Below are positions 22,103 to 63,892 of a DNA stretch of 64,000 nucleotides, piece by piece; within the stretch, counting starts at the first letter, position 1, and every line of letters starts with the position of its first letter. Made by a program: the position numbers and the translations under genes. The stretch comes from Thermodesulfobacteriota bacterium. Its GTDB lineage: Bacteria; Desulfobacterota_D; UBA1144; Nemesobacterales; Mycalebacteriaceae. The notes below the pieces were generated by a model. It did no database searches and was not told the origin of the DNA. It saw only the letters and a program-made list of their open reading frames with translations. The stretch covers positions 256,001 to 320,000 of the forward strand of contig OZ242184.1 of assembly GCA_965205855.1 (NCBI GenBank), given 5' to 3'.

Positions 22103-25021
22103 TTGCGCGCCGCAGTGAAAGATAAAAACTCAAATCCGGACGATTTTGCCCGCAGACACATCGGCTCTTTCGGCAAAGACTCCGAAGAGATGCTCAAGAT
22201 GGTCGGCGCGGATTCCATTGAGGAGCTTGTAAAGCAGGCACTTCCCGCAAGCATTTTGAGTGAAGTTCCGCTTTCCCTGTCTCCCGCCGCGGACGAGCAT
22301 TCATTTCTTGAACTTATGAGGGGCATAGCGTCCCAAAACAAGCGGTTTAAATCTTTCATAGGGCTCGGTTACAACGACTGCAAGGTGCCGGAGGTCATAA
22401 AAAGAAACGTTTTTGAAAATCCGGGCTGGTATACGCAATACACACCTTATCAGGCGGAAATCGCGCAAGGTCGTCTGGAAGCGCTTCTCAATTTTCAGAC
22501 CGTTGTGTGCGATATGACCGCGATGGAAGTTGCAAACGCTTCTCTTCTTGACGAAGCGACCGCCGCATGCGAGGCAATGGCTATGATTCACAGAGTTGTT
22601 TGTGCCAAATCGCGCGCCGCCGCTCCGAACAGGTTTTTTGTTGACCGCGACTGCTTTCCCCAAACTCTTGAGGTTTTAAGGTCAAGAACCGAACCGCTTG
22701 GCATAGAAACGGTTGTTGAACATTTTGAGAATTTTGACCCGAAAGGGAATTTTTTCGGCGCCCTTGTTCAGTTTCCGACAATGCACGGAGAAGCGAGGGA
22801 TTATAAGGATTTTATTGAGCGTGTCCACGGCGCGGGCGCTCTTGTGGCGGTTGCCGCGGATATTCTCTCGCTTGCCGTTTTTTCTCCGCCCGGGGAGGTG
22901 GGTGCCGATGTGGTTGTGGGATCAACCCAGCGGCTTGGCGTGCCAATGGGTTGCGGCGGACCGCACGCGGCTTATTTCGCGACACGTAAAGGGTTTCAAC
23001 GGCAGGTTCCGGGGAGAGTTATCGGCGTTTCCGTTGACAACGAGGGAAACCGCGCCTACAGGATGTCCCTTCAGACGCGTGAACAGCACATAAGAAGGGA
23101 GAAGGCGACCTCCAACATCTGCACGGCGCAGTCTCTGCCGGCGATAATGGCGGCGATGTATTGCGTTTATCACGGTCCCGAAGGGATTGAGAAAACGGCG
23201 CGGAAAATCCAGGGTTTTGCCGCCGCGCTTGCGGGTGAACTTGAAAAGACCGGATTTCAACAGACAAATCCGAGCTTCTTTGACACCCTTTCATTTGACC
23301 TCCGTGCGATGCCGGCGGGAACAGGAGAGAAGATCAGAGATATGTCGCTCAAAAACGAGGTTAACTTCTTTCACGCACCCGATAGAGTGGGCGTCTCGCT
23401 TGATGAAACAACGGTGGTTGCGGATTTGAACCTTATCCTGCATATCTTCGCAAGTGCGCTCGGAAAGGACGCTCCGGTTATAACCGACGGCTCCGCCGCG
23501 CAAAGAAACGGCCTGTTTGAGGGAATGGAAAGAAAAACCGGCTTCTTATCTCATCCGGTTTTCAAAAGCCACCGTTCCGAGACCGAGATTGTCAGATACA
23601 TAAAAAGTCTTGAAAACAAAGACCTTTCCCTTACCCATTCGATGATACCGTTGGGTTCATGCACAATGAAGCTTAATTCCGCTTCGGAGCTCGCGCCGGT
23701 CAGCTGGCCTGATTTCGCAAGTGTTCATCCGTTCGCTCCGCGCGACCAGCTGAGGGGATATGAGAGGATAATCGGGGAACTCGGAGACAGTCTTTGCGAG
23801 ATAACGGGATTTGCCGCCTCCTCTCTTCAGCCCAATTCCGGCGCTCAGGGTGAGTTTGCCGGACTTATGGTCATAAGGGCTTACCATCAACACAAGGAAG
23901 AGGGGCACAGGAATATCGTGCTGGTCCCGTCTTCCGCTCACGGAACCAATCCCGCAAGCGCCATCGCGGCGGGAATGAAAGTTGTTACGGTCGGTTGCGC
24001 GAGTGGCGGCGCGATAGACCTCAACGACCTTGAGGAAAAATGCGCGGTGAATTCCCAGAACCTTGCCGCGATAATGGTTACCTACCCTTCAACTCACGGG
24101 GTTTTTGAGCCTGACATACGCGAGGTTTGCTCAACCGTTCACAAGCACGGAGGTCAGGTGTATATGGACGGCGCGAACCTTAACGCGCAAGTCGGAATTA
24201 CAAACCCCGCGCTCATAGGGGCGGATTTGTGCCATGTGAACCTTCACAAAACTTTCAGCATTCCGCACGGCGGCGGCGGACCGGGAATGGGTCCTATATG
24301 TGTCGCCGGGCATCTTGCGCCTTTTCTACCGGGGCATCCGTTTGACAACGGCTCCTCAGGTTCCGATTCCGAACTCCGGTCGGCTCCCGTGGCTTCCGCT
24401 CCGTGGGGAAGCGCGAGCATAGCAATTATTTCCCATGCGTATATAGCCATGCTCGGCCCCGAAGGTGTCAGACGGGCGACCATGCACGCGATTTTAAACG
24501 CCAACTATATGAAACAACGGCTCGAACGTATCTACAAGATTCTCTACGAGGGTGATTCGTGCAGGGTTGCCCATGAGTTTATTCTTGATTTGAGAGAGTT
24601 TAAAAAAAGCGCCGGACTGGATGTTGAGGATTTCGCAAAGCGTCTTATGGACTACGGCTTTCACGCCCCGACCGTTTCATGGCCCGTTGCGGGCACAATA
24701 ATGATAGAGCCGACCGAGAGCGAGTCAAAAGCTGAGATTGACCGTTTTTGTGAGGCTCTTGAGAAAATTCATGAAGAAATCTCGGAGATAAAGGCGGGCA
24801 AAGCCGACCGCGAAGACAATCTTCTGAAAAACAGCCCGCATACGGCAAAAAAAATTGCCTCAGAACCGTGGAATCATTCATATTCACGGCAAAGAGCATG
24901 TTTCCCGACCGGTTTTGTCGCTGAAAACAAATTCTGGCCCCCCGTTTCACGCATAGACAACGCGTTTGGAGACAGAAACCTTTTCTGCATATGTCCTCCG
25001 CCGGAAACGTATGAGGATTAG
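22103..25021 (+). CDS. gcvP: Glycine dehydrogenase (decarboxylating), single-chain
   Basis: YTPYQAEIAQGRLE, KATSNICTAQ, NLHKTF, PHGGGGPG. Confidence 0.96.
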   Translation: MRAAVKDKNSNPDDFARRHIGSFGKDSEEMLKMVGADSIEELVKQALPASILSEVPLSLSPAADEHSFLELMRGIASQNKRFKSFIGLGYNDCKVPEVIKRNVFENPGWYTQYTPYQAEIAQGRLEALLNFQTVVCDMTAMEVANASLLDEATAACEAMAMIHRVVCAKSRAAAPNRFFVDRDCFPQTLEVLRSRTEPLGIETVVEHFENFDPKGNFFGALVQFPTMHGEARDYKDFIERVHGAGALVAVAADILSLAVFSPPGEVGADVVVGSTQRLGVPMGCGGPHAAYFATRKGFQRQVPGRVIGVSVDNEGNRAYRMSLQTREQHIRREKATSNICTAQSLPAIMAAMYCVYHGPEGIEKTARKIQGFAAALAGELEKTGFQQTNPSFFDTLSFDLRAMPAGTGEKIRDMSLKNEVNFFHAPDRVGVSLDETTVVADLNLILHIFASALGKDAPVITDGSAAQRNGLFEGMERKTGFLSHPVFKSHRSETEIVRYIKSLENKDLSLTHSMIPLGSCTMKLNSASELAPVSWPDFASVHPFAPRDQLRGYERIIGELGDSLCEITGFAASSLQPNSGAQGEFAGLMVIRAYHQHKEEGHRNIVLVPSSAHGTNPASAIAAGMKVVTVGCASGGAIDLNDLEEKCAVNSQNLAAIMVTYPSTHGVFEPDIREVCSTVHKHGGQVYMDGANLNAQVGITNPALIGADLCHVNLHKTFSIPHGGGGPGMGPICVAGHLAPFLPGHPFDNGSSGSDSELRSAPVASAPWGSASIAIISHAYIAMLGPEGVRRATMHAILNANYMKQRLERIYKILYEGDSCRVAHEFILDLREFKKSAGLDVEDFAKRLMDYGFHAPTVSWPVAGTIMIEPTESESKAEIDRFCEALEKIHEEISEIKAGKADREDNLLKNSPHTAKKIASEPWNHSYSRQRACFPTGFVAENKFWPPVSRIDNAFGDRNLFCICPPPETYED

Positions 25022-46118: not shown

Positions 46119-46346
46119 ATGAATGATTTAATACAACGCGGATTGAACGAGCATCTGATTAAGTTTGACAATAATGAAGAACCGACACGCATTACTTACA
46201 TAAATCACGATAAAACGCGCAGATACTCAAACCCTGAAGAGAAAATACAGGCGGAAACTTATATCAAGCTGGTTTTGGATTATAACTATCCGCCGGAACT
46301 TATTGACCTGTTTGTGTCTGTTACTCTTGGTTCCTCAAAAAAATGA
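46119..46346 (+). pseudogene. N-terminal fragment of an HsdR_N-domain restriction-modification protein
   Basis: NPEEKIQAETYIKLVLDYNYPPELIDLFVSVTLGSSKK ends abruptly just before the expected AD(I/V)V nuclease motif. Confidence 0.65.
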
Positions 46347-46831
46347 CCGAAGAGATTTTGTCTGATGCAGGGCGTTTTCGACGTGCTGGTGTCGGTGTGC
46401 ATAAAGGCGGTAAAGTGATTCATGTCGCACCACCGGCAGACCGCGTTCAATCTTTAATGAAAGATTTACTACACTGGCTTAAACGCACTGATGAGCATCC
46501 GTTAATTCGCAGTTGTGTTTTCCATTATGAATTTGAATTTATTCACCCCTTTAGCGATGGCAATGGCAGAATAGGGCGGCTTTGGCAGACGTTGATTTTG
46601 GGGCAATGGCGTCCGCTGTTTTATTCTTTGCCGATTGAAAACACCATTAAAAATAATCAGCAAGCCTACTATAATGCGCTCGCCAGTGCGGATGATAAGG
46701 CTGACAGCAGCGTGTTTATTGAATTTATGTTGGCCATTATTTTGGCCAGCATCAATGCCAGCGACCCAGCTACCGACTCAGATAACGACCCAGCTCAAAA
46801 TCAATCGGTGCATGGGTTTGAAAATGCCTAA
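46343..46831 (+). pseudogene. Internal fragment of a Fic-family protein
   Basis: Intact HPFSDGNGRIGR motif; N-terminal part absent; the C-terminus reads into antisense ttcA. Confidence 0.75.
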
Positions 46832-46967
46832 GAATATCAAACAATGACAACGAATCTTTCCCCCCTGACACCGCCAGCAATACCTTGTCGCCATTTTTAA
46901 TCATTTTAAAATCAGCAATCGCCCTGCCAACTGGTTTGGTTAATAGTTTGGGTAATTTTTTTATCAC
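46770..46967 (-). pseudogene. ttcA: 5' fragment of tRNA 2-thiocytidine synthase TtcA
   Basis: VGRAIADFKMIKNGDKVLLAVSGGKDS...APIDFELG, then truncated; its start overlaps the intI stop. Confidence 0.8.
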
Positions 46968-47944
46968 AACTTATCCAACGGCGAAACCACGCCTTGCCCG
47001 CCTTGACGCAAAACATGGGTGTAAATCATCGTCGTTTGTAAATCACTATGCCCAAGTAAGGCTTGAATCGTACGAATATCCGTACCCGTTTGTAACAAAT
47101 GCGTGGCAAAGGAATGGCGAAAGGTGTGTGCTGAGACTTTTTTATGAATATTGCATTGTTGAACTGCGCGCTTAATTGCCTTGTTAATCACCGATTGATC
47201 CACATGATGGCGCCGTTTGATTTGCGTGCGTGGATCAGTAGCAATATTGCGACTGGAAAACACATATTGCCAATTAAAGGCTTTATCCGCACTAGGATAT
47301 TTCTTCGCCAAGGCATAAGGCAAATACACACTGCCGAAGCCATCCTTAAGGTCTTTGTTATGAATAAGTTTTATTTTTTGTAAATGATTTTTTAAAGGTT
47401 TAGTTAAACTATTTGCAAGCGGCGTCACCCGGTCTTTGCTGCCCTTGCCGTCACGCACCGTGATTTGCCTAAATTCAAAATCAATATCTTGCACTCTAAG
47501 GCGCACCACCTCAGAAATCCTCAGCCCGCCAGCGTACAAAAGTTTCACCATCAACCCGACTGTACCGTCCATTAAAGTCAATACTTGCGCTACTTCTACC
47601 TTGCTTAACACCACAGGAATGCGTGGCTCTTTACGCGAACGCGCGGCATTTACCCCTTCTAATGGTTGCTTTAAAACCTTAGTGTACAAAAACACCAACG
47701 CATTCAGTGCCTGATTTTGTGTACTCGGCGCTACTTTTTGTTGAGTAGCCAAATGTGTTAAAAATCGTTCAACTTGCTCTTCAGCATTTTTAAGTAATGC
47801 AAACCTACTTTGAATGTTTGAAAATTTAACAAATCGCCTGACCCAGTCACAATAAGTATTCTCAGTCCCATAAGCATACCCCTGCCTGCGTAACAAAGTT
47901 CGCATTTCTTCTAACAAGGTCTTTTCTTTGGGTATAATAGCCAT
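46964..47944 (-). CDS. intI: Integron integrase
   Basis: APSTQNQALNAL, GLRISE, RDGKGSKDR, IntI-specific patch DLKDGFGSVYLPYALAKKYP, HTFRHSFATH, LLGHSDLQTTMIY; divergent from an attC array. Confidence 0.96.
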   Translation of the reverse strand: MAIIPKEKTLLEEMRTLLRRQGYAYGTENTYCDWVRRFVKFSNIQSRFALLKNAEEQVERFLTHLATQQKVAPSTQNQALNALVFLYTKVLKQPLEGVNAARSRKEPRIPVVLSKVEVAQVLTLMDGTVGLMVKLLYAGGLRISEVVRLRVQDIDFEFRQITVRDGKGSKDRVTPLANSLTKPLKNHLQKIKLIHNKDLKDGFGSVYLPYALAKKYPSADKAFNWQYVFSSRNIATDPRTQIKRRHHVDQSVINKAIKRAVQQCNIHKKVSAHTFRHSFATHLLQTGTDIRTIQALLGHSDLQTTMIYTHVLRQGGQGVVSPLDKL

Positions 47945-48065
47945 AAATATTAAAAACGTCAAATCAATTATTGACAGGTTTTTATTATAATACCCAATAT
48001 TAGGTTATTGTAGATTTTTTTGATAAAAACTGGGTAAATATGCCTGATTTTGTTTTTAATATAGT

Positions 48066-48102
48066 GTATTAAGGCAATAATGCCTTATACTAATAGTTAT
48101 TC
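48066..48102 (+). other. Putative attI site
   Basis: Last GTT (GTTATTC, 48096) before the first cassette ORF, preceded by an L-box-like GCCTTAT and the inverted repeat TAAGGCA/TGCCTTA. Confidence 0.55.
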
Positions 48103-48131
48103 GTTTTTAACCCTTATAAAATTATGAGATC

Positions 48132-48611
48132 ATGAGAAAAATACTTTCAGTAGCCTTTTTAGCGTTGCTTATGAGCGGTTGTATTCCACAAGTAGGAATT
48201 ATGAATTCAGTTAGTAAATATGATTCATCTGCAAATTTAGTTGACCTTGGGGATTCTAAAGAAGATGTTTTATCCGTACTTTTACCGACTCAAGTGGGGT
48301 TAAGTAAACGTTACAGTAAGGCTCCTGATAAGTTTTTAATGGATGAAAAGAGAGTCGAAATATATTTCTTCAGATCATCGTGGAATTCTGATGGGCTAAC
48401 TACAGATGATGAATTTACGCCATACATTTTTATTGATGACACATTAGTAGCTATTGGTTGGTCTGCCATAGGTGGGCCAAAAACTCAGGCACAAGCGGTA
48501 CCATCTACTTCAAACCCCTCAAGTCGCAGTTCTTCAAGGGAGTCTCAGCAAATTTTAAATCATGGTGCTGGAGGGTGTACTCCAAATTTTTCAACTGGAG
48601 GTTGCCTCTAG
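48132..48611 (+). CDS. Cassette 1: lipoprotein (DUF3192-like)
   Basis: Lipobox LMSGC; SDGLTTDDEFTPYIFIDDTLVAIG. Confidence 0.7.
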   Translation: MRKILSVAFLALLMSGCIPQVGIMNSVSKYDSSANLVDLGDSKEDVLSVLLPTQVGLSKRYSKAPDKFLMDEKRVEIYFFRSSWNSDGLTTDDEFTPYIFIDDTLVAIGWSAIGGPKTQAQAVPSTSNPSSRSSSRESQQILNHGAGGCTPNFSTGGCL

Positions 48612-48625
48612 ATCAAGCCCTAGAA

Positions 48626-49279
48626 GCCTAATCGGGTAAAGGCGAGTATCTAGCTCGCCCTCCCCACACCACCGGACATGCGGGTCCGCATCCGGCGGTT
48701 CGTCAGTCTATCTGTTCTGAGGCTGAGAACAAAACCGAACCGTCATGAGTCGACTTGTCGTTCGTCACGACCTTGGCCTCCCAAGAGATACGATTGTCTC
48801 ACTCCTCATCTGACGTTCAGGCCTTCCTGCAAGACCATCGTCCTGATGGGCTGCAGTACTATGCCGTCTGCTGACTTCTGCCCGATCACAGACGCCATTG
48901 CTGGCACCAGCGCTATGCATTCGCATCGCATGTCGGGCAGATCTCCCCAGATAAGAGCATGAACTGTCACTGCACAACCTTGTCATTTACCCTACCACCT
49001 GAACCAAGTGGACTTCGCTATCTTGTGCTAGCTCGTCCCAGTGGCTGGGCCTTCTATGACATTTCTGTTCGTAGGCTCGCAGTTTTGCGCTCGGGCTTCC
49101 TTCAGACCACCCCTCGCGGAGTTGCCTTTGCCGTCGGCTAGTAGTTATCATTGGTTCATGAAAACACAATGTTGGTTCTCCTACAGGGGACTTTCACCCC
49201 ATAAGTTCATGCCCATGCTGGGCGTACACAAGGCACTCCAGCGGACGGCTTACGCCGCCGCTGAGTTTGGCCGTTAGAG
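48626..49279 (+). other. attC1, interrupted by a group II intron
   Basis: GCCTA (48626-30) plus ACAAGGCACTCCAGCGGACGGCTTACGCCGCCGCTGAGTTTGGCCGTTAGAG (49228-79) rejoin into an attC nearly identical to attC7. Confidence 0.9.
48631..49227 (-). mobile_element. ORF-less group IIC (IIC-attC) intron, 597 nt
   Basis: Bottom strand starts GTACGCCCAGCATGGGC and ends with DV GAACCGCCGGATGCGGACCCGCATGTCCGGTGGTGT (CGC triad) and DVI ...TTTACCCGAT. Inserted at TTGT/T. No RT ORF. Confidence 0.9.
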
Positions 49280-49317
49280 CATGAGCATAATAACGAGCTG
49301 ACGGGAAAACAAACAGC

Positions 49318-50544
49318 ATGGCAAACGAGAACCTTTCAAACGCCAAAAGGGCAAAGAACGACGAGTTCTATACCCAGTACGGTGATATTCAGAAAGAGAT
49401 TGAAGCATACCTGGAATACAACCCCGATGTCTTTCGTGGCAAGGTGGTTTACTGCAATTGCGATGACCCATATGAAAGCAATTTCTTTCGCTATTTCGTG
49501 CTCAATTTCAACAAACTTGGATTGAAACAGCTTATCACCACCAGCTACAAGCCTTCGCCTGTTGCCAACACACAGCTGAATTTGTTTGGCAACGATAAAT
49601 CTCTCTCAAAAACAAAAGGCCGCCCAAAAGTAACAGCCAACAAGTTCATTATCAGTGAAGCGCACGACATAGATGGCGATGGCGAGTTCAATCTAAAGGA
49701 TGTTGCCATACAGTTGAAAGCAAACAAACAAAATGAATGGACACCCCTTGAAGGTGACGGCGACTTTCGCAGCGATGAATGCATTGACCTTCTGACGCAA
49801 TCAGATATTGTCGTGACCAATCCGCCCTTTAGCTTGTATCGACAATTTGTAGCACAGCTGGTTGCCTACAAAAAACAGTTTGTGATCATTGGAAGTAAAA
49901 ACACTATTACATACAAAGAGATATTTCCTCTGATAAAAGCAAACAAAATGTGGGTGGGTACAACCAGTTTTAACAAGGATATGCTGTTTATAGCTCCTTC
50001 AAATGCCGACCTTGGCAAGAAACCCAAAACTGCGATTCGCGTAGTGGATGATGTCACATATTTACGATCACCATCTGTTTGGTTTACCAACCTTGATCAT
50101 GGACGCCGTCATCAGCCATTGCCGCTCATGACGATGGAAGATAACAGAAGGTTTAACACCAAAATTCGGAAAAATGAGAACAGTTATAAGCAGTATGATA
50201 ACTATGAGGGAATAGAGATTCCCTACACTAATGCTATCCTGAGTGATTATGATGGAGTGATGGGAGTGCCCATCAGTTTTCTGGACAAATATTGTCCGGA
50301 ACAGTTTGAAATTTTAGGCGCAACTCAAAGAGGTTGCCACGATGAAGTCCCCGATACAAAAAAATACGACGATTACTGGGAAGTAAGACCGGATGGTACC
50401 AAAACAGGATCGCGCGGCGGGAAAACAAATGAGAATGCCAATTTGGTTGGTAATGATGGGAAGAAGAATTACTTCATTAATGCCAAAGGTAGAATAATTC
50501 AATCCGCCTATCAAAGACTTTTTATTAGGCATAGGAAAGGATAG
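49318..50544 (+). CDS. Cassette 2: adenine-specific DNA methyltransferase, EcoRI family
   Basis: [40 protein letters not shown]. Confidence 0.88.
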
Positions 50545-50545
50545 C

Positions 50546-51715
50546 ATGAAAACAACTCTAGAAACCGACATCACTGTCAAAGAAATTTCCGATGGGTTCG
50601 TCTATAACGAACTCGAAGGGAAAGGACTTTTCGGCCTGTCAGGCAAACTCACGATTCAGCCGGATTATCAGCGTAATTACATCTACGCTTCTGATGGTGG
50701 AAAGAGAGAGATTGCGGTTATTGATTCGATACTCAAAGGCTACCCGATTGGCTTGATTTATTTTAACAAGGTCTCTGAATACAATCTGGAGGTGCTGGAC
50801 GGGCAGCAGCGAATCACCAGTGTGGGACGTTTTGTAACCGACAAATTTGCCATCAAAGACGGCAATGGCATGGAGCAGTACTTCAGCGGAATGGCAAAGG
50901 ACAAGAAGTCCAAGATACTGGGTACCAAGTTGCTCATTTATGAATGCGAAGGATCAGAAAGCGAAATCAAAGAATGGTTTAAGACAATTAATATCGCTGG
51001 AGTCCCACTCAATAATCAAGAGTTGCTAAATGCCGTTTATTCGGGCCCATTTGTGACGCTCGGTAAAGAGGAATTTAGCAATAGCCAGAACGCCAACATC
51101 CAAAAATGGAGCGCGTATATAAAAGGTAATGCTAATCGGCAGAATTTCTTAGAACGTGCGTTGGACTGGGTAAGCAAGGGCAATATCGGCGACTATATGA
51201 GCAGTCATCGCTTTGACAAAAACATCAATGAATTAAAAGTATATTTCAACAGCGTTATCGACTGGGTTTCTAGTGTGTTTACTGATGTTGAAAGTGAGAT
51301 GTGCGGGCTTGAGTGGGGGCGCATGTACGAAAAGTATCACACAAAAGCGTTTAGTCCCGCAAAAGTATCAGCCGAAGTACAGAAGCTTTACGGCGATCCA
51401 TATGTGAACAACCGAAAGGGCATTTTTGAGTATGTCCTTGGCGGATCAACAGACACAAAGTTACTGAATGTTCGAGTTTTCGATGAAGCAACAAAGAAGT
51501 CTGTTCATGCATCTCAAACTAAAAACTCCAAAGCGAAAGATGAATCAAACTGCCCCCTTTGCGCCATTGGACATGATGCCAACAAGAGCAAACTCTGGAA
51601 GTTTGTTGAAATGGATGCTGACCATGTAACCGCATGGAGCAAAGGTGGCGCTACAATTAAAGAGAACTGCGAAATGCTATGCAAAACTCATAATAGAGCA
51701 AAAGGCAATCGATAA
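50546..51715 (+). CDS. Cassette 2: DUF262 + HNH endonuclease (GmrSD-like)
   Basis: [19 protein letters not shown]; C-terminal CPLC...DADH...[10 protein letters not shown]. Confidence 0.88.
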
Positions 51716-51723
51716 ATCCTCAC

Positions 51724-51794
51724 CCATAACAAGTTGCTGCACGCGGAAAATTACTCGCTTTGCTCCCAATTTTCCGGTGAGCAGGGCGTTAGCC
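51724..51794 (+). other. attC2
   Basis: CCATAAC...GCTGCACGCGGAAAATT/AATTTTCCGGTGAGC...GTTAGCC. Confidence 0.85.
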
Positions 51795-51818
51795 GTCAAA
51801 ACAAAATATCGAGGTTAC

Positions 51819-52835
51819 ATGAGAAAATTCTATAAAACTAAACTAGGCGGCATCTATCATTCTGATTCTGTAAAATATATGGAAACATTGAATGATGGTG
51901 AGGTGAATTTAATTATGACATCTCCACCGTTTGGCCTAGTAAGAAAAAAAGACTATGGAAATGCCGATGCCCATGATTATTTAGATTGGTTTCGTCCATT
52001 TGCAGAGCAATTCAGTAGAATATTAAAAGAGGATGGCTCTCTAGTAATTGATATAGGTGGCGCATGGATAGCTGGGCAACCAACCAGATCACTATATCAT
52101 TACGAATTGATGATAATGCTGTGTCGTGAATATGGCTTCCATTTGGCGCAAGAGTTTTTTTGGTGGAATCCTTCAAAATTACCAACGCCTGCGGAATGGG
52201 TGAATATTCGCCGCATTCGAGTAAAAGATGCTATAAATTGCGTCTGGTGGCTGTCAAAAACTCCGTGGCCAAAGGCCAGTAATCGCAGAGTATTAGTTCC
52301 TTATAGCAAATCAATGAAGGGGCTATTGGAAAATGGTTATAAAGCGAAGTTGCGTCCAAGTGGGCATGATATTAGTGACAAATTCTCTACAGATAATGGC
52401 GCATCAATTCCACCTAATTTAATAGCAATTGCAAATACAGAGAGCAATTCTTCTTATCTTGTAAAGTGTAAAGAATCTGGAATAAAACCCCATCCAGCAA
52501 GATTCCCCGTCGGTCTCCCAGAATATTTCATAAGAATGCTGTCAGATAAAGGAGATTTTGTTCTTGACCCATTTGGCGGCTCTTGCGTAACAGGTGAAGC
52601 AGCAGAAAGGTTAGAACGTAAATGGGCATGTGTAGAATTAGAAAAAGAGTATATTGAAGGAGGAAAACTTCGTTTTCCAGTCAAGCAAATTGAAAGAAAA
52701 ATACCAACATATAGCTTGTCTCACCCTGGGGCTTTATGGAATGGTGTTGATAATGAAGAACCACTGCCAACAGATGGTGGCAAACAAAGACCTAAGAAAA
52801 AAATAAAACAGGGGCATGACAATGCCAGCAGTTAG
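51819..52835 (+). CDS. Cassette 3: beta-class N4-cytosine/N6-adenine DNA methyltransferase
   Basis: TSPPF catalytic motif, HPARFP, LDPFGGS. ATG 51819, since the track start lies upstream of attC2. Confidence 0.9.
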   Translation: MRKFYKTKLGGIYHSDSVKYMETLNDGEVNLIMTSPPFGLVRKKDYGNADAHDYLDWFRPFAEQFSRILKEDGSLVIDIGGAWIAGQPTRSLYHYELMIMLCREYGFHLAQEFFWWNPSKLPTPAEWVNIRRIRVKDAINCVWWLSKTPWPKASNRRVLVPYSKSMKGLLENGYKAKLRPSGHDISDKFSTDNGASIPPNLIAIANTESNSSYLVKCKESGIKPHPARFPVGLPEYFIRMLSDKGDFVLDPFGGSCVTGEAAERLERKWACVELEKEYIEGGKLRFPVKQIERKIPTYSLSHPGALWNGVDNEEPLPTDGGKQRPKKKIKQGHDNASS

Positions 52836-53828
52836 TCCAAGTCGCATAGTCAACGAAATCATAAATGCCATTCATCAGTCTGGTGGAGTAGCAGCGTATG
52901 TATCTGAATCTACAAGAACTCACCCGCGAAAATTCATAATAAGTTATATGGGAAACACATACAGCCTATGGGTATATGTATGGACACTTACTCACGGAGG
53001 TCGAGCTTCTCTTCCAGATGAATATAGAATACAAATGACCTCGGTAACATCACCACTGCCAAAAAATCCAAATGGGTTAACAGTTTTAATGGGTTATCAT
53101 CCTGATTTAAGAATGCTCGCTGGATTTGATTTAGAAAAACACAGCACCTTTGCAACAGGGTCACCGTCAGTACAAATTAACATATCTGCAATTCATGCTG
53201 CTTTACAAAATGGCTTATCATTCTTCACAAAAGAAAATGATGAAATAGCTATTGGTGTGAGGGCAGATCAATTTCTAAGTTATTCTCTAAATGCTGCTTC
53301 ACTCCATTTGTACGGTGCGGAAAGCCAATTGACAGATATGCTTACAAAAGCAGTAGAATTACAAGAAATACCTGAGCAAGATATTTCGAGTCTTGCCGCA
53401 GACCGTAAACAAATTGTGGAAAATGTAAGTAGGTATTCCCGTGATGCTAATTTTAGAAAATTAGTAATGGGGCTTATGATAATCGGTGTGCGGTAACACG
53501 AACACAGTTACGTTTGGTGGATGCCGCACATATCTTACCTGTGCCATCAGGTGATAGTAGTGATCATGTAACAAACGGAATGGCTTTATCACCCACATTT
53601 CATCGAGCATATGATAACTGTCTTATTTACTTAGATGAAAATTTTGTGATGAAACTTAACGAACAAAAAGCCGAAGAATTAAGAGCAAATAATTTAGATG
53701 GTGGACTTCAGCAGTTCTGTTCATTTCTTGATAAGAAAATACATCTTCCAATTGACGTTAATCAACGGCCAAGAATTGAATATATTAAAATGGCAAATGA
53801 GCATCGTAGAATACCAGGGTATGTATAA
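52816..53828 (+). pseudogene. Cassette 3: HNH restriction endonuclease, frameshifted near 53470
   Basis: RDANFRKLVM then, in another frame, AYDNRCAVT...VDAAHI...NGMALSPTFHRAYD; a 1-nt deletion at ATGGGGCT joins the two track ORFs. Confidence 0.82.
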
Positions 53829-55137: not shown

Positions 55138-55215
55138 AGCTAACAATCGCATGCACTCGGACAGCAAAAAGCGCCGCTCGTTCCTCGCTCCGCCCCCCTT
55201 ATGTTGGCGTTAGGC
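55138..55215 (+). other. attC4 (chimeric, arms do not pair)
   Basis: AGCTAAC and GTTAGGC are present, but the inner left arm ATGCACTCGGACAGCAAAAAG has no complement on the right. Confidence 0.7.
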
Positions 55216-55232
55216 AATAAATAGGAAATCAA

Positions 55233-55565
55233 GTGGAAATAATTAAAACCTTTGGTTTGTTTTTAGTTACGGCATTAGCAGAAATTATTGGCTGTTATCT
55301 TCCTTATCTGTGGTTAAAGCAAGGGCATTCCATCTGGTTGTTGGTTCCTGCAGCAATTAGTCTCGCAGCATTTGCTTGGCTGCTAACTTTGCATCCCCAA
55401 GCCGCCGGTCGTGTTTACGCCGCATATGGTGGAGTCTATGTAAGCGTTGCATTGCTTTGGTTGTGGGCCGTCGATTCAGTTCGCCCAACGGTAACTGATT
55501 GGGTTGGTGTAGGAGTTGTTCTTATCGGTATGTTCATCATTATGTTTGGGCATCGTTATGCCTAA
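55233..55565 (+). CDS. Cassette 5: YnfA (UPF0060) SMR-like membrane protein
   Basis: [25 protein letters not shown]. Confidence 0.9.
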
Positions 55566-55631
55566 CAAGTCGCTCGTTCGGATGCAAACTACGCTGCGCT
55601 TCGTTTGCACCGCACAGCTTTAACGTTAGGC
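55560..55631 (+). other. attC5
   Basis: GCCTAAC...TGCAAAC/GTTTGCA...GTTAGGC; near-identical to attC8. Confidence 0.9.
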
Positions 55632-56762: not shown

Positions 56763-56818
56763 ATCTAACAAAACACTCCAGCGGACGGCTACGCCGCCGC
56801 TGAGTTTAATCGTTATAC
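56763..56818 (+). other. attC7
   Basis: ATCTAAC...ACTCCAGCGG/CCGCTGAGT...GTTATAC. Confidence 0.9.
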
Positions 56819-60953: not shown

Positions 60954-61283
60954 ATGATGAAGAAACTACATATTGCAATTTCTACAAATAAGATAAACGA
61001 GACAATAAACGATTACACTATTCGCCTAGGTGTCGAACCGTGTCTATTTGTTCCGAACGAATACGCATTATGGAGAACGGACTCGCTGAATGTATCGATT
61101 CGCCAAGATTCTTCTTGTACTCCTGGAGACCTTCGACATTTAGGTTGGGAAGATGATTCCGCTGAAGAGTTTAGCCAAGATACTGATGTAAACGGAATTA
61201 TTTGGGAACATTTTAATGCTCAACAACAAGCTGACGGAATTAACGAATTATGGTCAGAAATAAATTATCAGTCAGCAGATTGA
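60954..61283 (+). CDS. Cassette 11: VOC/glyoxalase-like protein
   Basis: KLHIAI...LRHLGW...DVNGIIWE pattern. Confidence 0.65.
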   Translation: MMKKLHIAISTNKINETINDYTIRLGVEPCLFVPNEYALWRTDSLNVSIRQDSSCTPGDLRHLGWEDDSAEEFSQDTDVNGIIWEHFNAQQQADGINELWSEINYQSAD

Positions 61284-61284
61284 G

Positions 61285-61341
61285 TTCTAACAAATCATTC
61301 CAGCCGACCGCTAACGCGGCGGCTGAATTCAAGCGTTATGT
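61285..61341 (+). other. attC11
   Basis: TTCTAAC...ATTCCAGCCG/CGGCTGAAT...GTTATGT. Confidence 0.9.
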
Positions 61342-61369
61342 ATATAAATAAAAACAGAGGCCTTAAACA

Positions 61370-63237: not shown

Positions 63238-63257
63238 GCTGAATTTAGACGTTATGT
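63238..63257 (+). other. Right half of attC14 (left arm deleted)
   Basis: GCTGAATTTAGACGTTATGT resembles the attC3/6/11 right arms; the expected TCATAAC is absent. Confidence 0.7.
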
Positions 63258-63293
63258 GCTAATTTTATGCAATAGACTTCTGAGGATGAAAAA

Positions 63294-63707
63294 ATGAGAG
63301 CATTAATTTGGTTAATACTGATGACTTTGTTTGTGCCGTTGGTTTCTGCTGAAGAGATCGAAACTGCTATTGTATCCAATACCTTAGCCAAGTCGACACA
63401 TAGCTGGGATGGAAGTCAGCTTCCGTCATATCCAGATGGTCAGCCAGAAGTGACGATATTAAAAATAACAATCCCGGCCGGGGTCAAGTTACCACTTCAT
63501 CAGCACCCGTTCATTAATGCAGGAGTATTAACAAAAGGTGAGTTGACGGTAGTCACTAAAACAGGTGAGAAACTGCTCATGTCGGCAGGCGACACCATTG
63601 TTGAAGTAGTAAATAAATGGCATTTTGGTGAGAACAGTGGAAGCGTACCAGCAGAAATTATAGTGTTTTATTCTGGTATCAAAGGGCAACCAATTACAGT
63701 TAAATAG
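63294..63707 (+). CDS. Cassette 15: exported cupin-domain protein
   Basis: Signal peptide; LPLHQHP...GEL...EVVNKWHFGEN. Confidence 0.85.
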   Translation: MRALIWLILMTLFVPLVSAEEIETAIVSNTLAKSTHSWDGSQLPSYPDGQPEVTILKITIPAGVKLPLHQHPFINAGVLTKGELTVVTKTGEKLLMSAGDTIVEVVNKWHFGENSGSVPAEIIVFYSGIKGQPITVK

Positions 63708-63712
63708 TTCGC

Positions 63713-63892
63713 ACATAACAAGCAATTCTAACGGCAGGCGACAATGGATATTGTCTTTGTGAGACTACGACGCTTCGTGCTCCATCTAACAAAGACAATC
63801 AACGGGAATTTTTTAAATGCGCTTACAGGTAATCCTATGTTAAAAACTCCCGTTATAGTCGGCTACCGTTATAGTTCTCCAGTATCTTAGGT
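63713..63892 (+). other. attC15: long, branched, with degenerate R'
   Basis: ACATAAC matches the cassette start GTTATGT; outer stem TAACGG/CCGTTA encloses two hairpins; ends CTTAGGT instead of GTTAGGT. Confidence 0.55.

Follow-up and report, generated by a model that had tools for sequence, protein, structure and literature searches.

The window analysed here is a stretch of 64,000 nucleotides from the genome of a Thermodesulfobacteriota bacterium (contig OZ242184.1, positions 256,001 to 320,000; positions below are counted from the first letter of the window). It contains a chromosomal integron in which the first recombination site, attC1, is interrupted by a group IIC-attC intron of 597 nt that has no ORF for an intron-encoded protein (IEP). 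This raises the question of where such an intron came from, how it could have reached attC1 and whether it is still mobile.

The intron and its place in attC1

The features of the integron and of the ribozyme are as follows.

46964–47962, minus strand: integron integrase gene intI, 332 aa (NCBIfam TIGR02249, 428.5 bits against a cut-off of 265; Pfam Phage_integrase and Phage_int_SAM_4)
48132–48611, plus strand: ORF of cassette 1, 159 aa, with a weak DUF3192 match; the 3' exon side of the intron lies just past its stop
48626–48630, plus strand: left part of the attC1 R'' box (GCCTA), severed from the rest by the intron
48631–49227, minus strand: the whole ORF-less group IIC-attC intron
48631–48665, minus strand: DVI, with the bulged branch-point A (48637) and the 3' end ...GAT (RF00029 alignment and relatives)
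48666–48699, minus strand: DV, with the CGC triad (48695–48697) and a 2-nt bulge
49022–49026, minus strand: EBS1 (ACAAG), in the loop at 49017–49032
49228–49279, plus strand: rest of attC1 (ACAAGG ... R' GTTAGAG at 49273–49279), whose bottom strand is the intron 5' exon hairpin
56763–56818, plus strand: a paralogous uninterrupted attC of the same array, with the same TTGT/T on the bottom strand

On the minus strand, the intron runs from 49227 (GTACGCCC...) to 48631 (...TTTACCCGAT), between a 5' exon that ends in ...GCCTTGT and a 3' exon that begins with TAGGC, and there is no target duplication. The 5' exon and the intron each end in T, so the boundary could be moved by one base. Three Rfam models, with their gathering scores used as thresholds, identify the element: RF02001 (D1D4-3) with 132.2 bits (gathering 32; 49123–48956, model positions 1–170 of 170), RF01998 (D1D4-1) with 65.1 bits (gathering 35; 48912–48820, 1–84 of 84) and RF00029 (DV-DVI) with 45.0 bits (gathering 40; 48700–48631, the full model, 1–77). 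The first two cover DI–DIII and the third DV and DVI, the core of a group II intron, and the predicted fold of the whole has an MFE of −230.9 kcal/mol (z = −4.32). In DV the CGC triad is aligned under the AGC of the RF00029 consensus, which is the bacterial class C feature. The triad, at intron positions 531–533, is invariant in 31 sequences, as is the run 531–534, and three DV pairs show compensatory changes with respect to relatives. Over the family structure, 83 of the 153 predicted pairs, those of DV and DVI included, carry compensatory changes among 31 relatives.

The general consensus for the 5' end of group II introns is GUGYG. Here the RNA starts with GUACG and ends with AU, and the idea that the unusual start is a defect was rejected because it is the norm of the lineage: all six relatives aligned with the intron begin with GUACGCCC, as do most of the ORF-less relatives listed in a larger comparison.

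EBS1 pairs at 5 of 5 positions with the 5' exon end CTTGT. The pairing covaries in the family, with 138 of 155 EBS1–IBS1 positions paired across 31 ORF-less relatives, a value reached in none of 5000 shuffles. The target logo of the family reads T55 T50 G56 T56 / T59 A52 (each out of 60), the base at +1 thus being T in 59 of 60 relatives.

The intron occupies the R'' box of attC1 at TTGT/T, on the attC bottom strand and antisense to the cassettes, the setting of a IIC-attC site. When it is removed in silico, the bottom strand of attC1 folds as an attC hairpin with R' and R'' paired (−18.6 kcal/mol), and the remainder at 49228–49279 shares 88% identity with the uninterrupted attC at 56763–56818. 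Contigs from public runs end abruptly at ~48096, which suggests that the left boundary of cassette 1 lies there. Comparison of the stretch from intI to attC1 (46900–49400) with 40 relatives matched the intron in none of them and gave short, weak matches in four same-order genomes, with 70–73% identity at the intI end and one 51-nt match of 87% identity in the attC1 part.

The original prediction, made from the letters alone, had described a 597-nt minus-strand intron with these boundaries and no duplication, placed in attC1 at TTGT/T, with an EBS1-like loop complementary to CTTGT, a CGC triad in DV and an AT end to DVI. All of this is borne out, and the scan with group II models proposed alongside it gave the three Rfam matches above. 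The GUACG start to which it also pointed is present, although as a trait of the lineage and not as an oddity.

The RT-encoding parent and the deletion junction

A search for an RT-encoding parent found one in another genome, G041. On its contig C14, positions 22202–22716 match intron positions 1–515 with two differences (513/515), and the contig runs on from there into an ORF with RVT_1; the full-length cluster representative also has GIIM, these two being the only domains recorded for the 437-aa parent IEP. Within DIV, 101 of 102 positions are alike up to intron position 515, the difference lying at 502. Three features of the intron mark what was lost.

48702–48814, minus strand: domain IV remnant of 113 nt, closed by GTCAG/CTGAC, which keeps a GAGGAG SD-like motif and the ORF start region (sequence and fold)
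48703–48768, minus strand: residual ORF of 21 codons, with a GTG start (intron position 460) and a TGA beside DV, its first 18 codons being the N-terminus of the parent IEP (translation compared with P0127 and P0001)
48713–48716, minus strand: deletion junction with AACA microhomology (intron positions 512–515), ~1253 nt of ORF lost

The 5' side of the junction is placed by the end of the identity to the parent at 515 and by contigs from public runs X4 and X7 that link window position 48713 to the start of the parent ORF. On the 3' side, a contig from run X1 links 48716 to the end of the parent ORF, coding ...KELWVKFHYP, and the parent IEP ends in ...HYPNR (P0127 / P0001 comparison). Since the G041 contig stops within the ORF and the 3' end of the parent is not seen as contiguous DNA, the 3' junction is drawn from the 30-letter loose end of one contig together with the protein C-terminus. 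A 24-nt stretch of DIV common to the intron and the parent had no matches in JGI metagenome contigs.

What remains of the parent ORF is thus 18 N-terminal codons, the last 2 codons and the stop. The earlier statement that there is no RT remnant does not stand, whereas the claim of a clean miniaturisation does, as does that of a small DIV closed by GTCAG/CTGAC (113 nt for the predicted 120 or so). The IEP ORF is absent and the ribozyme is otherwise whole; full-length relatives have a DIV of ~1370 nt in place of the 113 nt here (alignment gaps ~1364–1393 nt). About 84 nt of DII found in the six aligned relatives are also absent. A second step of miniaturisation was considered for these and rejected, as the parent, which matches the intron through that region, is without them too. 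By these comparisons, the 597-nt intron is a recent deletion derivative of the RT-encoding parent.

We propose that a parent of ~1850 nt, encoding a 437-aa RT/maturase, would have lost 1253 nt between two AACA repeats and with them almost the whole ORF, DI–DIII, DV and DVI being kept. The deletion would also have spared the DIV stem with the SD and start region of the ORF. In the group II introns that have been studied, this stem is the binding place of the intron-encoded protein.

Copies elsewhere and the lone copy here

Searching for further copies led to the same genome, G041. One copy (C7:11292–11888) is identical to the intron (100%), and two more, with 1 and 2 differences, are found on contig C14. 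These copies (99.7–100% identical) lie at other attC-type sites, and two of them stand head-to-tail with full-length introns, an arrangement read from a metagenome-assembled contig in which assembly errors are possible. The parent is directly beside one of the copies, and a hairpin of the attC type is predicted at the C7 site. The two genomes could be thought to belong to strains of one organism. This was rejected: at E <= 1e-10 the G041 contigs matched the host genome (G000) in nothing more than pieces the size of cassettes and one repeat of 62 nt, and the C7 gene for chorismate synthase had no match in G000, so G041 represents a different organism. An intron-filled site on G041 contig C14 has an empty counterpart in the window, near 61290.

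61280–61345, plus strand: empty attC site, homologous to the filled site of G041 (5' exon 98% and 3' exon 94.6% identical)

Some depths in public runs are set down here as an observation. In X1 the word depth was 22258 for the contig internal to the intron, 204 for the intI contig and ~1200 for cassette contigs, and the corresponding pairs were 224 and ~4 in X4 and 94 and 32 in X5; these depths sum all organisms, are not copy numbers and only hint at an element repeated in the samples. Three RNA runs contained 5% of the sampled words, which says nothing about expression.

The host genome, a single contig of 1.40 Mb, has one copy of the intron and one DV-DVI match. Searches of it for PF00078 (RT), for PF08388 (maturase domain) and for any other group II intron found none. 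At E <= 1e-20 the parent IEP had no match in the host genome or in any of five same-genus genomes, and distant matches (34–57% identity) in 5 of 35 same-order genomes. Of five other genomes that carry ORF-less copies, four also have a related IEP. The exception, G046, has a lone ORF-less copy and no related IEP, so stranded or independent copies are not rare. Given a host genome without RT or maturase, the copy in attC1 is probably stranded and immobile.

The reading that we favour, with a probability of roughly 0.78, is that the intron derives from a mobile group IIC-attC intron, having arisen as a non-autonomous copy by deletion of the ORF, spread in trans and become stranded here. In cells that hold the parent, its RNA would use the parent protein in trans, reverse-splice into the folded bottom strand of an attC at TTGT/T, guided by the pairing of ACAAG with CTTGT and by the T that begins the 3' exon, and then be copied into DNA. 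The co-occurrence with the parent and the near-identity of the copies point to such mobilisation. Most likely the copy in attC1 came in with a captured cassette unit that it already occupied, or during the brief presence of an element bearing the parent.

A wider form of this reading takes in the family. In one scan, to which a DIV length window was applied, 99 loci with ORF-less relatives were found; they form at least three groups by DIV similarity and three singletons, their hosts belong to several phyla, and they nearly always keep the TTGT/T target. They stem from several independent deletions. It could be supposed that ORF-less IIC-attC introns in general are long-lived, MITE-like parasites of cassette arrays, which would arise repeatedly by microhomology deletion, cross phyla on cassettes, fuse cassettes, form tandems by invading sites already occupied and supply outward promoters, with lone copies in streamlined, RT-free genomes like the host's perhaps persisting by protein-free activity of the HYER type on folded attC DNA (see below). 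We consider this general picture unlikely.

Much less probable is that the intron is a dead deletion relic which never moved in its short form, the other copies having come from duplication or recombination of the DNA that carried it. In its favour are the single copy in a genome that lacks an IEP, the visible degeneration of some ORF-less relatives with internal losses (L024 and L035) and the statement in PMC4424553 that bacteria are not expected to retain immobile derivatives. Duplicated DNA would carry its flanks along, and this counts against the idea: the four copies have 0–2 differences, differing flanks and precise ends between TTGT and T, both sides of the C7 copy in G041 differ, and the homologous site in the window is empty. 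The original prediction had held that a single copy with a ragged RT remnant, broken DI tertiary contacts and no splicing would be such a relic; the copy is indeed single in its host, but the deletion is clean and there are other copies in G041.

We give similarly little credence to the idea that the element is a protein-independent ribozyme, kept for cutting or invading single-stranded DNA or RNA with CTTGT, for instance folded attC strands. According to PMC12990946 and bioRxiv 10.1101/2024.08.31.610620, HYERs (Liu et al. 2024, Science) are group IIC introns without an ORF whose 6-nt recognition site serves in the hydrolysis of RNA and DNA, HYER1 being 637 nt long. As these sources describe them, they share with our intron the class, the lack of an ORF, a length of ~600 nt and a short EBS1-type recognition. 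Ours is the only group II element in an RT-free genome, and G046 has the same lone pattern. The first 515 nt of the ribozyme are nevertheless only two positions away from the mobile parent, so there is nothing specialised in it, and it is oriented against the transcription of the cassettes, where no promoter for it is evident. A consensus scan of 49228–49400 found no promoter-like site on the intron strand; sites further upstream on that strand were no commoner than in shuffles and have a terminator-like site between them and the intron.

Known introns and consequences for the array

The favoured reading, a deleted copy spread in trans, places the element within a kind that is already known. 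Bacterial group II introns that lack an ORF and use a related IEP in trans are described by Zimmerly & Semper 2015 (PMC4424553), citing Simon et al. 2008 and Dai & Zimmerly 2003, and are said there to be found nearly always in genomes with such an IEP. Our intron resembles them in its closeness to an IEP-encoding intron, in the co-occurrence of the two (in G041) and in its multiple near-identical copies; it differs in that the host genome has no related IEP and in that the parent, the junction and both kinds of site, filled and empty, are identifiable. C.te.I1 of Clostridium tetani, given in the Figure 3 legend of PMC4424553 as an alternatively splicing example, is likewise a group II intron that lacks an ORF and whose genome has no IEP-related gene, whereas ours lies antisense in a recombination site and has a recent, identifiable parent elsewhere. 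The original view of a non-autonomous, attC-targeting intron mobilised in trans gains from the parent, the clean deletion, the near-identical copies, the empty site and the EBS1 covariation. The novelty that it implied is overstated, since introns served in trans and HYER ribozymes are known. Our literature search found no paper on ORF-less IIC-attC introns as such, nor any on an ORF-less group II intron with Photobacterium profundum; the family may already be present in the lists of the Zimmerly database and among the supplementary sequences of the HYERs.

Kinship is closest with the group IIC-attC introns of class 1 integrons. The consensus site and the class C CGC rule are given by Sonbol & Siam 2021 (PMC7923331) and the names S.ma.I2, E.c.I7 and Kl.pn.I1 by Leon et al. 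2010 (PMC3001079). As these papers describe them, such introns agree with ours in the attC bottom strand, the R'' box, TTGT/T, the orientation antisense to the cassettes and the CGC triad of DV; they share the GUACG start and the ...CCCGAU end. Plasmid records with matches number 364. Two introns between resistance cassettes (L012 and L014) are 74–76% identical to ours over DI; for positions 1–303 the value is 74.5% for the L012 intron, which stands in the opposite orientation in a class 1 integron, with the dfrA14 and arr-2 cassettes on either side. All seven aligned introns, the host's and six relatives, are flanked by TTGT/T, six with TA and one with TG at +1/+2.

A P1out-like site is also shared, at the published position.

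49122–49151, plus strand: outward promoter-like site TTGCCT-18-TATCAT (intron positions 77–106), with 9 of 12 matches in a consensus scan, facing the downstream cassette

Table 3 of PMC3001079 lists P1out at this position of the intron, and the paper demonstrates Pout activity for four of the lineage's introns. The site faces the downstream methylase cassette. Its −35 element lies in a conserved ribozyme motif, so that selection for a promoter may have had no part in its presence. Least probable of all is that the intron is a domesticated regulatory module, kept for this promoter on the downstream methylase/HNH cassette and for locking the cassettes together: the site does face the gene at 49318, has its counterpart in P1out and in the measured Pout activities, and goes with a split R'' box, but the match is to a consensus, the region holds 5 such sites against 2.6 ± 1.5 in shuffles, the copies (0–2 differences) are too young for selection to show and any intron of the lineage would bring the same promoter.

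For the integron, interruption of the R'' box should inactivate the attC and fuse cassettes to one another, here tying cassette 1 to the next, and may re-drive expression of the cassette downstream. The 597-nt form, with its short DII and DIV, is a naturally trimmed IIC ribozyme that can be compared with the HYERs for ribozyme engineering. The census indicates that short forms are common in the attC-targeting lineage. The principle is unchanged by these findings; with the parent, the junction and the filled and empty sites together, they offer a concrete case for direct study of how a non-autonomous group II intron is born and spreads.

Identity of the intron and its target site

The feature originally predicted, a 597-nt group II intron on the bottom strand, is real and was well read. 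Read along the minus strand, the sequence is ...GCCTTGT / GTACGCCC ... TTTACCCGAT / TAGGC..., with the intron between the bars, and a covariance-model scan found three Rfam models that match it end to end, each above its gathering score.

Intron and integron features in the window
49227 down to 48631, minus strand: ORF-less group II intron, 597 nt (sequence and Rfam)
49123-48956, minus strand: RF02001, 132.2 bits
48912-48820, minus strand: RF01998, 65.1 bits
48700-48631, minus strand: RF00029 (DV-DVI), 45.0 bits
46964-47962, minus strand: integron integrase gene (TIGR02249, 428.5 bits against a cut-off of 265)
55140-55215, 55560-55629 and 56763-56818: further attC sites

In the RF00029 alignment, the class C triad claimed for DV appears as CGC under the consensus AGC, and the bulged A of DVI is kept. 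The predicted fold of the whole intron RNA (-230.9 kcal/mol, z = -4.32 against 100 shuffles) includes the expected GUCAG/CUGAC stem closing DIV, and DV and DVI form as they should.

Next to the integrase gene comes cassette 1 (48132-48611) and, after it, attC1. Once the intron is removed in silico, the bottom strand of attC1 folds into a hairpin with R' and R'' paired (-18.6 kcal/mol). The insertion point is TTGT/T, as claimed, and lies within R'', antisense to the cassettes. This is exactly the target described for group IIC-attC introns in the relevant part of PMC7923331. The array extends to at least ~63.9 kb in the window; in the stretch beyond the intron, the pattern used found no attC before 55140. 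Here, 3' of the intron on the plus-strand map (49318-53496), lie in a row an EcoRI-type methylase, a GmrSD_N/HNH protein, an N6_N4 methylase and an MTaX1 protein.

Further copies and the parent intron

Searching a one-genome-per-species collection with a lineage pattern that required a short DIV gave 99 loci. Two of these lie on contigs (C7 and C14) of the 5-Mb genome G041 and match all 597 nt, at 100% and 99.7% identity. The search for further copies in attC sites yielded three in G041.

Copies of the element and their sites
Window, attC1: the element (flank comparison)
G041 C7:11292-11888: identical; in an attC-type hairpin, both flanks different
G041 C14:15917-16513: 1 position different; directly after a diverged full-length intron whose IEP (intron-encoded protein) is 55% identical to the parent's
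G041 C14:21605-22201: 2 positions different; directly before the parent (flank comparison)

The four copies thus differ by 0-2 positions in different surroundings, which speaks for movement of the miniature form itself. An uninterrupted site in the window near 61290 matches the flanks of both C14 sites (5' exon 98%, 3' exon 94.6% identical) and is joined at TTGT/TAGAAC; comparison of filled and empty sites shows no duplication, as had been claimed for the insertion. The G041 contigs and the host genome (G000) have only cassette-sized pieces in common, and these are therefore different organisms drawing on a common cassette pool. Such pieces, 91-98% identical to C7/C14, lie at 63252-63761, 63727-63871, 61180-61339 and 46333-46816 in the window. 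The Fic gene beside intI is truncated in the window (162 aa) and full-length on C7 (326 aa). Outside the window, at G000:C1:545247-547636, nine copies of a 62-nt stretch, 291 nt apart, are 92-95% identical to a G041 sequence (L127:2333-2394), which suggests an array of tandem repeats, or a repeated domain of a protein, common to both genomes.

The stretch abutting the last C14 copy (C14:22202-22716) equals intron positions 1-515 except at 101 and 502 and runs on into an RVT_1 ORF, open to the contig's end; this is the RT-encoding parent that had been sought. The representative of the ORF's 99%-identical cluster (14 members, contigs up to 3.18 Mb) is a 437-aa RT/maturase with RVT_1 and GIIM, and the parent IEP ends in ...KELWVKFHYPNR. 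The element had been thought to keep no RT remnant; in fact, the 18 codons after the GTG at its position 460 equal the N-terminus of a parent IEP variant, P0127. Its remaining DIV retains the GAGGAG motif and the ORF start region, which bind the IEP in studied group II introns. Contigs of two public sequencing runs (X4 and X7) join window position 48713 to the start of the parent's ORF in reverse complement, and a contig of a third (X1) joins 48716 to sequence coding KELWVKFHYP; therefore, both sides overlap in AACA (intron positions 512-515). A 437-codon ORF from position 460 gives, by arithmetic, a parent of ~1850 nt and a loss of ~1253 nt.

From the head-to-tail pairs in G041, whose junctions rest on metagenome assembly, we infer that occupied sites may have been re-invaded, which fits because IBS1, the 5' exon pairing partner, lies upstream of the resident copy. 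The diverged IIC-attC intron on C14 (L127:9067-12187) has a 49-nt 5' end (L127:9067-9115), 94% identical to that of the element, ~1.2 kb upstream of its DI, with a DDE_3 transposase gene (L127:9183-10280) between the two.

Full-length and ORF-less relatives

The DI of the element matches 364 records in a plasmid collection. The nearest are RT-encoding introns on Thiothrix (81% over positions 1-291) and Methylocalor plasmids; others lie between class 1 integron resistance cassettes, for example dfrA14 and arr-2 (L012). All six aligned relatives start GTACGCCC, end CCCGAT, and have the loop GCACAAG and the site TTGT/T. GUACG, originally taken as an oddity, is therefore the norm of the lineage. 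Compared with these six, the element has three compensatory pair changes in DV and lacks ~84 nt of DII. On the Thiothrix subterranea plasmid that carries the closest of the full-length plasmid relatives, the IEP (L002:4148-5349) is annotated as two overlapping CDS, one for the RT and one for the maturase part; this points to a frameshift there.

Sixty complete ORF-less elements, with a GTACGCC start and CCCGAT end, were taken from the 99 loci; the remaining 44 of 104 pattern matches, with one end missing within reach, were left out. Length is 697-710 nt in 38 of the 60, and the target logo is T55 T50 G56 T56 / T59 A52, each out of 60. Together with the element they form DIV groups of 44, 11 and 3 (the element and its two G041 copies) plus three singletons, so the ORF was lost several times. 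The group of 11 is cyanobacterial. In a non-redundant set (n = 31: 30 of the 55 elements of 580-740 nt plus the element, omitting those >92% alike and one of the element's own copies), EBS1, the intron partner, and the five bases that end the 5' exon pair at 138/155 positions (shuffles 116.6 ± 3.3; 0/5000 reach 138), and there are matched variants, for example ACCAG opposite CTGGT and ACAAC opposite GTTGT. The RNAalifold consensus of this set has 153 pairs, 83 with compensatory changes.

Five genomes with ORF-less copies were sampled, and four of them also encode a related IEP, at 53-57% identity in three and at 49% in Marinobacter G043. None was found in the fifth, G046 (Methylophagaceae), where a parent-type IEP gave no match at E ≤ 1e-30; its 2.6-Mb single chromosome carries a lone 703-nt ORF-less intron (C1:1811165-1811867 = L032:3165-3867), the nearest other relative of the element (79% over DI).

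Unannotated introns of the lineage on Photobacterium profundum SS9 plasmid pPBPR1
L015:2601-3304: ORF-less intron, 704 nt
L015:1504-1816: partial second copy, 3' half only, ~1.1 kb upstream

The copy in its host and known ORF-less introns

The host genome (1,401,274 bases in one contig, 98% complete) has one copy of the element and one DV-DVI match; no RVT_1, GIIM or parent IEP match was found in it, nor a promoter-like site just upstream of the intron on the intron's strand. This makes it most likely that the copy is stranded. A plus-strand sequence match at 49122-49151 (intron positions 77-106), TTGCCT-18-TATCAT, resembles P1out, the outward-facing intron promoter, and occupies the same intron position as an example in Table 3 of PMC3001079 (TTGCCC-18-TATCAT at 77-106, another host); this putative promoter faces the methylase gene at 49318. 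One contig of a further run (X5, depth 13.5) skips 120 nt inside DI (48973-49094) and may represent a further-shortened variant or an assembly artefact. Across 46900-51800, word depth in X1 contigs, which is not copy number, rises from ~204 (intI and the 10 kb upstream of it) to ~1200 (cassette 1 and parts of the cassette that follows); other genomes that are more abundant in the sample may carry these cassettes as well.

According to passages of PMC4424553, bacterial group II introns that lack an ORF nearly always share their genome with related introns that may supply an IEP in trans; C.te.I1 was the single known exception. In anatomy, and in how it behaves in G041, the element fits the usual kind; in its own genome it resembles C.te.I1. 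HYERs are described in PMC12990946 and bioRxiv 10.1101/2024.08.31.610620 as ORF-less IIC introns that cut DNA and RNA, and would by that description share the ORF-less IIC anatomy with the element (HYER1 637 nt, the element 597 nt). Thus, the kind is already known and the element is a further example; what it adds is an identified parent, a microhomology junction, sites both filled and empty, and a census in which miniature introns of this sort prove common.
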